Assembly (NCBI RefSeq): GCF_003334255.1
Contig: NZ_QOWU01000098.1
DNA: 7,050 bases
Direction: 5' to 3' (one strand)
Origin: Escherichia coli
Lineage (GTDB): Bacteria; Pseudomonadota; Gammaproteobacteria; Enterobacterales; Enterobacteriaceae
The translations under genes were made by a program, and so were the position numbers. The notes under the pieces are model-generated. The model saw only the letters and a program-made list of their open reading frames with translations. It was not told the origin of the DNA and did no database searches. Of the stretch, positions 4,814-6,547 are shown piece by piece; position 1 is the first letter of the stretch; each line of letters opens with the position of its first letter.

Positions 4814-4840
4814 AAAAGTGGCTCTTCCGCAACCTGGGTG
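4814..4840. repeat. Left terminal inverted repeat of the ISL3-family element (as drawn on the plus strand)
   Basis: AAAAGTGGCTCTTCCGCAACCTGGGTG, matching the reverse complement of 6521..6547 with one mismatch (C/T at position 9). Confidence 0.7.
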
Positions 4841-4847
4841 AAGATTT

Positions 4848-6467
4848 TCATGCCAGTGGACTCATTACCCTCCGCCTAAGTAGTTCAAGTCCGGCTCGAC
4901 CATACATCTGGCGTATCAGCACCTTCAGGCGATTTACATGACCTTCGACAACACCAGTACTCCAGCGACTGCTGATTGCCTCACATATAGCCGCAGCATC
5001 AGCTTCCATCCCCGCAGCTACGCACCGAAGTTCTGCTGAGCCGCTTTCGTGGACCCGAGTGAACCAGCTGCTTAGCTGTGATTTATTTTAGGTTTTCAGA
5101 ATACGGTAGAACTCGAGTACCAGTTGCTGCGCTATTTTCAACTCCGGTTCTTTTTCACACATCAGACTAATAAATCGGAAAGCATAATTTTCTTCACCCC
5201 TGATTATTCTCCAGGGCATCAACCAGCGGCTTACCCGGGACACTGAAGGAAGTCTTGCGGCAGTAGTAACCGGTGGGATCCAGCCTTTATGCCATTTGGC
5301 AACAGCATCCCTGACGATGGTTTCACTGCCTGTAACCCCCCTGGCCACCATTTCCCGCCATATCCGGCCGGAGTTATAATTACCACATTCTCGTTGCTCT
5401 TTTAACCACTCCCTCCATGGGTCCAGAAGCCCTCGCTTTGGAGGCCTAGTTGACATTTCAGGGAATGTTCCTGAACCCACCCAGCGACTGACTGTCACTC
5501 GCGACAGGCCTGTAATACGGGATATTTCCCTGAAACTACATCCCTTGTTATGCAGGGCCATAACCTCTGTCCAACGCTGATGCCGTTTTTTGCGGATGTG
5601 CTGTTTAAGGCGTTCCAGACGACGGAGCGATGCTACAGGCACAGATATTTCTGGCTCAGGTGATTTCTTCAGTGATAACTCTCTGACAACAAGACGTATC
5701 AGAGGCATATATCTGTACATCATTCGTTCAGGCTCATCACCAATATTTTTTAGCAGGTGCCATCGATCGGCCACCTGTCTGGCCTGAGGTGCACCTTCAC
5801 GTGCTGCTGTCGCATAGACTCCACTGCGATCACGCGAGACAACCTGTATTTCCGGATATTTTCTGAACCAGGTCGCCAGCGTACGCTGATCACGGCCGGG
5901 AAGCAGGACGAGGGGACGGTGAGTATCAGGATTGACTATTAACATACCGCAGCAGTGGCCCCGATGCCACGCCCACTCATCAATACCGACATGAGGCGCG
6001 CCTGACTGTTTCGTCTCCGGGGTATTGATAAGCCTGCGAAGAAGAGTATCAGCACTGCAACGGAGACCCACTGCCGTTGCAGCCCGTTTTCCAGCCTCAC
6101 CTCCAGCTATTAATCCCAGTTGACGTTGTTAATTTTGTAACGCCTGTGAAGACTGCTGGTGTGAACTGGCGAAGGGAGCAAGCGACTCGGCAAAAATTTT
6201 ACGTGAACAAGCCGGGTTACGGCAGTACCAGTGGCGGACGGAAAATACAAGCCATAGCGTCTGCCCTGAGCAGGGTAGATGCTGTATCCGGCGCCGACGA
6301 CAACTATGAACAGAGTCGCTACGCTTAAAGCATTCAGGACATTGTGCTGTTTTGCGTTTTCCGTGGAGATGGAGGGTTATACCGTCAGAGCTAATAATTT
6401 GTCGACTGCATCGCCATCCGCAAGGTAACTGTAGAAGTGTCTTAAGAGAGTGCATTGCGTTGCCCAT
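4848..6467 (-). pseudogene. ISL3-family transposase (about 539 codons) in one continuous frame, broken by two in-frame TAA codons (6129..6131 and 5088..5090)
   Basis: ORF 6129..6467 (zinc-finger part: ...CPECFKRSD...HWYCRNPACSRKIF), ORF 5088..6071 and the untracked tail 4848..5087 are all in the same frame. Translating across the stops gives ...QALQN * QRQLGLIAGGEAGKRAATAVGLRCSADTLLRRL... (HTH-like), then ...VGIDEWAWHRGHCCGMLIVNPDTHRPLVLLPGRDQRTLATWFRKYPEIQVVSRDRSGVYATAAREGAPQARQVADRWHLLKN... (DDE region), then ...FYRILKT * NKSQLSSWFTRVHESGSAELRCVAAGMEADAAAICEAISSRWSTGVVEGHVNRLKVLIRQMYGRAGLELLRRRVMSPLA* (typical ISL3 C-terminal motif). The final stop at 4848..4850 is 8 bp inside the left IR. 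Confidence 0.8.
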
Positions 6468-6520
6468 AACTTAAAACAGCTTAGATCCTTGTTCGCCAGA
6501 AAGTTTCATCCATTTTCTTC

Positions 6521-6547
6521 CACCCAGGTTGCGGAAGAACCACTTTT
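6521..6547. repeat. Right terminal inverted repeat of the ISL3-family element
   Basis: Plus strand CACCCAGGTTGCGGAAGAACCACTTTT, reverse complement AAAAGTGGTTCTTCCGCAACCTGGGTG. The transposase ATG (6465..6467, minus strand) lies 53 bp inside it. Confidence 0.7.

Follow-up and report, generated by a model that had tools for sequence, protein, structure and literature searches.

The window analysed here, a stretch of 7,050 nucleotides, belongs to an Escherichia coli chromosome and is 100% identical to several complete genomes. At its centre of interest lies an insertion sequence (IS) of the ISL3 family, read on the minus strand, whose transposase gene is a pseudogene and which is flanked on one side by the remnant of a gamma-glutamyltransferase gene (ggt). 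The features are listed below, with residues numbered on the read-through protein.

4476-4768, minus strand: C-terminal fragment of ggt (PGAP annotation).
4799-6562, minus strand: whole ISEc38-like IS, 1764 bp, with tips TGTCA...TGACA (homology span of independent plasmid and chromosomal copies).
4799-4840, plus strand: terminal inverted repeat on the 3' side of the transposase gene (tip A), in which the outer 21 nt, TGTCACGAACAGTGCAAAAGT, precede an ISL3-type box, GGCTCTTCCGCAACCTGGGTG.
6521-6562, minus strand: terminal inverted repeat on the 5' side of the transposase gene (tip B), in which TGTCAACGACGGATGAAAAGT precedes GGTTCTTCCGCAACCTGGGTG.
4848-6467, minus strand: pseudogene of the transposase, whose 539-codon frame is interrupted by two TAA codons (translation, ISL3 profile, PGAP annotation).
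6216-6350, minus strand: zinc ribbon of the ISL3 type (residues 40-84), in which C43 and C46 are invariant and C82 and C87 nearly so (PF14690, E = 1.5e-6; alignment).
6129-6131, minus strand: nonsense codon 113, TAA, where intact copies have TTA (Leu).
6027-6146, minus strand: N-terminal three-helix helix-turn-helix (HTH), residues 108-147 (AlphaFold2 helices 108-121, 124-132 and 139-147; conserved GGEAG motif).
5676-5993, minus strand: RNase H-like core, first part (residues 159-264), containing D163 (5979-5981), D213 (5829-5831) and a DRWH motif (DDE_Tnp_ISL3 positions 1-97, invariant columns, strands and helices of the model).
5274-5621, minus strand: nested IstA-like tandem HTH module, residues 283-398, which includes the segment ALHNKGCSFREISRITGLSRVTVSRWV singled out by the initial annotation (IS21 profile, IstA structures in the PDB, Foldseek).
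5088-5090, minus strand: nonsense codon 460, TAA, where intact copies have CAA (Gln), with loss of the catalytic Glu.
4863-5243, minus strand: all-helical insertion domain and C-terminal catalytic helix, residues 409-535, with E508 (4944-4946), K515 and K518, the last replaced by Ile in this copy (DDE_Tnp_ISL3 positions 117-239, invariant columns).

Translation of the window gives a single minus-strand frame running from 6467 to 4848, with 539 codons and a terminal stop, in which the only interruptions are the TAA codons 113 (6131-6129) and 460 (5090-5088); this is the frame that the initial annotation had proposed. The list of open reading frames breaks it into pieces at 6129-6467 (112 aa), 5088-6071 (327 aa) and 4848-5009 (53 aa) and, as had been pointed out, thereby hides the conserved tail, the C-terminal part of which appears only as the 53-aa piece. 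The read-through protein matches the NCBIfam ISL3 model NF033550 with 345.1 bits (cut-off 180, E = 4.6e-103) over residues 31-535, corresponding to model positions 1-368 of 370, and the Pfam models PF14690 (Zn_ribbon_ISL3) and PF01610 (DDE_Tnp_ISL3, in a split match), which confirms the assignment to the ISL3 family. The element thus carries a single transposase gene that scores above the curated threshold of the family, and both a DDE triad and the motif (S/T)NG-x-(V/I)EG-x3-(L/I)K are present, the codons for D163, D213 and E508 all lying in the frame of the window. The E value of the profile match, together with hundreds of homologues of 539 residues, indicates that the frame has not arisen by chance. 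A search of 5.8 billion proteins recovered many intact 539-residue proteins, some of them 99% identical, with the tail included. Since such homologues are common, 539 codons is the native length of the gene and includes the tail. The tail (4848-5087) had been attributed to the transposase on inspection of the frame, and intact copies do read through it; the invariant residues E508, K515 and K518 are located there.

Large protein clusters with 91% protein identity to the window copy are named "ISL3-like element ISEc38 family transposase", and plasmid copies whose product is named ISEc38 family show 95.1-95.4% DNA identity over 1764 bp. By the ISfinder convention, isoforms of one element share roughly at least 95% of their DNA and at least 98% of their protein sequence. 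The name ISEc38, as used here, follows the NCBI protein product names, whereas PGAP calls the window copy merely an 'ISL3 family transposase', annotating 4848-6467 as "ISL3 family transposase, internal stop" (mapped from an identical genome, L001). The window copy and ISEc38 agree in length (1764 bp), in the 539-codon gene, in the two tip sequences and in domain order; they differ in that the window copy represents a diverged, chromosome-fixed lineage with two nonsense codons, damaging substitutions and no target duplication. ISEc38 appears routinely in surveys of mobile elements in E. coli, and literature searches returned just such genome-survey lists and no mechanistic study of the element. 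It is therefore known and named, and this copy of it is an annotated pseudogene. Taken together, there is very little doubt that 4799-6562 represents an ISEc38-like IS of the ISL3 family that has been inherited vertically and is no longer functional.

The limits of the element had initially been placed at 4814-6547 (1734 bp), and these have to be moved 15 bp further out on each side. ISEc38 copies in eight distinct E. coli contexts share homology over exactly 4799-6562 (1764 bp), with flanks that diverge right outside. The 27-bp inverted repeat noted previously (4814-4840 and 6521-6547) is real, with 26 of 27 positions matching, but it forms merely the inner portion of a longer, imperfect repeat of 42 bp, the arms of which match at 34 of 42 positions (a repeat finder gave 43 nt with 81% complementarity). 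The outermost 21 nt of each end lead up to a GG(C/T)TCTTCCGCA box (GG(C/T)TCTTCC), which by its sequence looks like a normal ISL3 terminus. The outer tips, A = TGTCACGAACrGTGCAAwAGT and B as listed above, can stand either way round with respect to the transposase gene. The order is B-gene-A in most copies and A-gene-B in three (L002, L003 and L014); the two orders differ as if the interior had been inverted between the near-perfect inner repeats of 27 bp, and 5-bp duplications are found with both.

Both tips of the window copy are identical to those of active copies. No target duplication is present around it, the flanks being GGCCATAC and GATGTGAA. Two mouse strains with multiple copies were also inspected, and showed the same single site and no duplication. 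The ggt fragment stops about 30 bp before the element (flanks in the window, 4476-4798 and 6563-6750), and the N-terminal part of ggt is absent from the other side, where island genes for zinc-ribbon proteins and an inovirus Gp2-family protein are found instead. The lack of a target duplication combined with the truncated ggt suggests a later rearrangement at the site, by deletion or by recombination between copies. In a strain that lacks the element, the ggt fragment adjoins a dynamin-family gene, itself truncated, near cobUST. An apparent empty site (H42) was considered and set aside, as it is a different deletion variant of the island and not the pre-insertion site. Elsewhere in the window, 392-1605 and 2434-3399 are, by the annotation of an identical genome, pseudogenes of a PfkB-family sugar kinase (frameshift and internal stop) and of a DMT-family transporter (internal stop), respectively, and a fragment of IS66 lies at the left edge; taken as a whole, the region has the appearance of an island in decay.

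The same chromosomal site is occupied in about half of E. coli. In the 5426 complete genomes searched, the left junction was found in 2647 and the right junction in 2829, and the insertion is old and vertically inherited. The alleles at the two nonsense codons were counted with 41-mers centred on the mutation, a match requiring an identical central base; Q460* was found in 2630 and L113* in 817 of the 5426 genomes. Database proteins of 459 residues, which are abundant, have Leu at position 113. Given these counts and the retention of Leu113 in the 459-residue proteins, Q460* arose first and L113* later, in a sublineage. The 41-mer with TAA at codon 460 also occurs at 37 places on plasmids, including NZ_AP018810.1, and the truncating allele is hence not confined to the chromosomal locus.

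The initial annotation ascribed the inactivation to the two nonsense codons. Both are borne out by comparison with intact copies that are 99% identical, in which the codons are TTA and CAA, but the damage goes further: the window copy has the substitutions Y173C, T175M, L180P, N504T and K518I at positions conserved in 86-100% of sequences. That the two TAA codons might be recoded, by readthrough or suppression, so as to allow a low level of full-length, active transposase is an idea for which one could cite the frame, otherwise open over 539 codons, and the intact inverted repeats. However, the sense codons in intact relatives indicate that neither stop is a conserved recoding site, Ile stands in place of the invariant K518, and four further conserved positions have changed. 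TAA is moreover the most efficient terminator in E. coli. Recoding was accordingly rejected and must be considered improbable in the extreme.

A less far-fetched proposal, though still a very unlikely one, is that the truncated products are useful, the 1-459 protein acting as a domesticated regulator, namely a dominant-negative inhibitor of incoming ISEc38. Q460* is nearly universal at the locus (2630 genomes), about half of E. coli genomes retain the locus, and the 459-aa reading frame still has all of the DNA-binding modules (the zinc ribbon and the two HTH regions) along with two residues of the catalytic triad; proteins of this length are also common in databases (P0101, 266 members; P0103, 1381). 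Yet the copies at the locus have dN/dS values of 0.8-1.2 in two pairs and 2.5 in a third pair with nine differences, a weak test on three sequences that gives no sign of purifying selection. The near-invariant residues Y173, T175 and L180 have been replaced, and L113* leaves 112 residues in 817 genomes. With dN/dS near 1, conserved residues lost and the second truncation so frequent, a domesticated inhibitor was rejected in favour of a decaying, non-functional copy. The plasmid copies have dN/dS values of 0.2-0.4. In a few strains the 539 codons at this locus are still uninterrupted (proteins P0003 and P0025), and the locus is therefore not dead in every lineage; the open-frame copies there (L010-L012 and L013) already have Y173C and T175M. 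The window copy itself cannot make transposase; as both of its ends are intact, the only movement still conceivable for it would be mobilization in trans by an active ISEc38.

The organization of the protein becomes apparent in comparison with intact relatives. The intact element encodes, in order, a zinc ribbon, an HTH, an RNase H-like core (D163 and D213), the nested IstA-like HTH module, an all-helical domain and the helix bearing E508. The N-terminal HTH (residues 108-147) is the usual end-binding HTH of the ISL3 family. In an alignment of 58 sequences D163, D213 and E508 are invariant, as are K515 and K518, and E508 is situated in the tail, which in this copy lies beyond the premature stop at codon 460. 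The AlphaFold2 model, for which 58 homologues were used, has a mean pLDDT of 91.9. Its best whole-protein structural matches by Foldseek are ISCth4 (IS256 family) and Hermes (hAT), which share with ISEc38 an RNase H-like core broken by an all-helical domain between the second Asp and the Glu, but differ from it in their DNA-binding domains and are related to it at a level of only 9-13% identity and TM-scores of 0.2-0.3.

The unusual length of the frame had led to the proposal of a longer ISL3 subgroup with an additional HTH inside the protein, and both parts of this proposal hold. The best 150 representatives (clusters at 50% identity) are nearly all of 520-590 residues and align end to end with 31-42% identity; the subgroup is, at the same time, already named and annotated and hence not new. 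Plasmid matches to the long form come from Klebsiella, rhizobia, Streptomyces, cyanobacteria and others. The general size of ISL3 transposases is taken here from common knowledge of the family and from profile lengths, no open paper stating a size range having been found. The DDE_Tnp_ISL3 match is split, residues 160-249 corresponding to positions 1-97 and residues 414-533 to positions 117-239, such that the ISEc38-type protein has about 165 residues where the Pfam DDE model has about 20. The extra length is a tandem HTH module of about 115-120 residues between the second catalytic Asp and the Glu. Residues 303-394 match the NCBIfam IS21 model (positions 2-100 of 294, E = 8.7e-13), and residues 304-398 match residues 12-107 of IstA of IS5376 (PDB 8q4d and 8b4h; E = 1.3e-8, 26% identity), with which the module superposes in Foldseek over 98 columns of 8b4h_A with an rmsd of 2.6 A. 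AlphaFold2 predicts the module as helices spanning 283-394, with pLDDT of 95-98, flanked by flexible linkers of low confidence.

The corresponding region of IstA comprises HTH-1, a minor-groove linker and HTH-2, and reads two sub-sites of the terminal repeats (PMC10122671). ISEc38 residues 304-398 align with all three of these parts. In IstA they stand at the N-terminus, whereas in ISEc38 they are found inside the catalytic domain, and ISEc38 is without the IstA-type catalytic domain, the beta-barrel and the IstB helper ATPase. TG...CA tips are common to ISEc38 and the IS21-family element IS5376. Target duplications in the IS21 family are short, 4-5 bp, and resemble those of ISEc38. The element is nevertheless outside the IS21 family, which is defined by an IstA with an integrase-type (rve) catalytic domain accompanied by IstB; it scores 48 bits against a cut-off of 160 and has no second gene. 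It might be argued that the extra length is not a real domain and only reflects an IS21-family fragment that landed in frame inside an ISL3 transposase gene, as the best non-ISL3 matches of the segment are indeed IS21-family transposases. Only the first ~100 residues of IstA are represented, however, and the catalytic domain of IstA, IstB and the IS21 ends are all absent. The module is in frame and conserved, with 30-40% identity, across no fewer than 58 sequences that represent Proteobacteria, Bacillota and further phyla, the active copies are under purifying selection, and the AlphaFold2 prediction is confident (pLDDT 95-98) across the module, with flexible linkers on either side. Such a chance fragment is thus highly implausible and was rejected; the segment is a nested domain.

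A canonical ISL3 transposase from Lactococcus is collinear with the 370-position family model and gives no IS21 match; aligned pairwise, 221 residues of ISEc38 face 93 of the Lactococcus protein. This gene was obtained by a search for the C-terminal motif, partial tblastn matches having given only degenerate copies. Canonical ISL3 elements (IS1165/ISL3-type of Firmicutes, ISPst2 / CLJ-ISL3) have, like ISEc38, a zinc ribbon, an HTH, a DDE core with a DRFH-type motif, the C-terminal motif SNG-x-EG-x3-K and a GG(N)TCTTCC-type box in the inverted repeat, but lack the nested module. The module is present in an ISRsp8-family protein (541 aa) and in a Priestia protein (489 aa), and in total in at least 150 protein clusters from several phyla.

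A second departure concerns the ends. The inverted-repeat tips of ISL3 elements begin with GG, according to the family description in ISfinder. GG tips and 8-bp repeats have likewise been described as classical for the family (PMC7643977). In the eight E. coli contexts ISEc38 instead has TGTCA tips, with the box 21 nt inside. Three independent copies, out of the eight distinct contexts, are flanked by 5-bp direct repeats (GTTGT, GTACT and GGAGC), and none of these three has an 8-bp repeat; canonical ISL3 elements, by contrast, combine GG tips with 8-bp duplications. Distant relatives from Acidisoma (GGCCC) and Indioceanicola (CCTCG) have the same extended ends and 5-bp repeats. Four other members of the long subgroup, from Komagataeibacter, Embleya and two viral contigs (L023, L025, L030 and L033), have GG tips and 8-bp repeats, and the one from Komagataeibacter carries the nested module, which shows module and end type to be separate features. 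The ends of a Sinorhizobium relative (L024) were not definable. Two further relatives on viral contigs (L031 and L036) have other extensions, of 20-27 nt, outside a GGTTCTT box, with tips CTGGGATT... and TGAATATT..., and an outward extension of the ends may have taken place more than once among long ISL3 relatives.

A relative on Klebsiella and Enterobacter plasmids (L019 and L020), with 74% protein identity, is found on about 1000 Klebsiella plasmids, where it adjoins genes for an aquaporin and a RelE/ParE toxin. Its tips read TGTCA / TGTTA, with the same outer segment of 21 nt. Its tblastn match is in two pieces and no gene is annotated there, and it is therefore probably also a pseudogene.

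These features can be combined into a working model of the intact element. The N-terminal zinc ribbon and HTH would bind the conserved box of the inverted repeats, and the nested tandem HTH may provide a second, two-part DNA contact, either with the ends or with the partner end. Cleavage and joining would then take place at the TGTCA tips, 21 bp (two helical turns) outside the box, and five bp of target would be duplicated on insertion. In the lineage of the window copy, the change from CAA to TAA at codon 460 removed the catalytic Glu, after which the change from TTA to TAA at codon 113 truncated the product after the zinc ribbon. Nothing relevant came out of literature searches connecting ISL3 with IstA, or on an insertion domain or a 5-bp duplication in ISL3; in the papers found, neither the IstA-like module inside the catalytic domain nor the pairing of TGTCA tips with 5-bp duplications is described, although both may already be in ISfinder. 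As a tentative reading, which we hold to be somewhat less than an even chance, elements of the ISEc38 type may constitute an undescribed branch of ISL3 with a rewired complex, in which an IS21-type two-part end-binding module was captured in the catalytic domain and, in the sub-branch comprising ISEc38, the Klebsiella-plasmid relative and the Acidisoma and Indioceanicola elements, the cleavage sites moved 21 bp outward to TG...CA tips and the duplication changed from 8 to 5 bp.

For genome annotation the locus is a routine case of a pseudogenised IS, already flagged by the NCBI pipeline. Its junctions and two nonsense alleles, which occur in large, nested sets of E. coli genomes, represent a possible lineage marker. 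With regard to the family, many ISL3 transposases are ~540 residues long because an IstA-like tandem HTH is lodged inside the catalytic domain, and ISEc38 and some of its relatives depart from the textbook ISL3 end sequence and duplication length, a domain architecture and end geometry that are a modest curiosity. The ISL3 family is regarded as replicative, and its elements are reported to drive adaptation in Enterococcus faecium (PMC13216065). Since PDB searches returned no structure of an ISL3 transposase, such natural variants could guide the study of end recognition and cutting in this clinically relevant family. If the proposed branch is real and undescribed, elements with GG tips and 8-bp duplications and elements with TGTCA tips and 5-bp duplications would form a natural pair with the same domain set, which would let one ask what determines where a DDE transposase cleaves and how far apart it staggers the cuts in its target.
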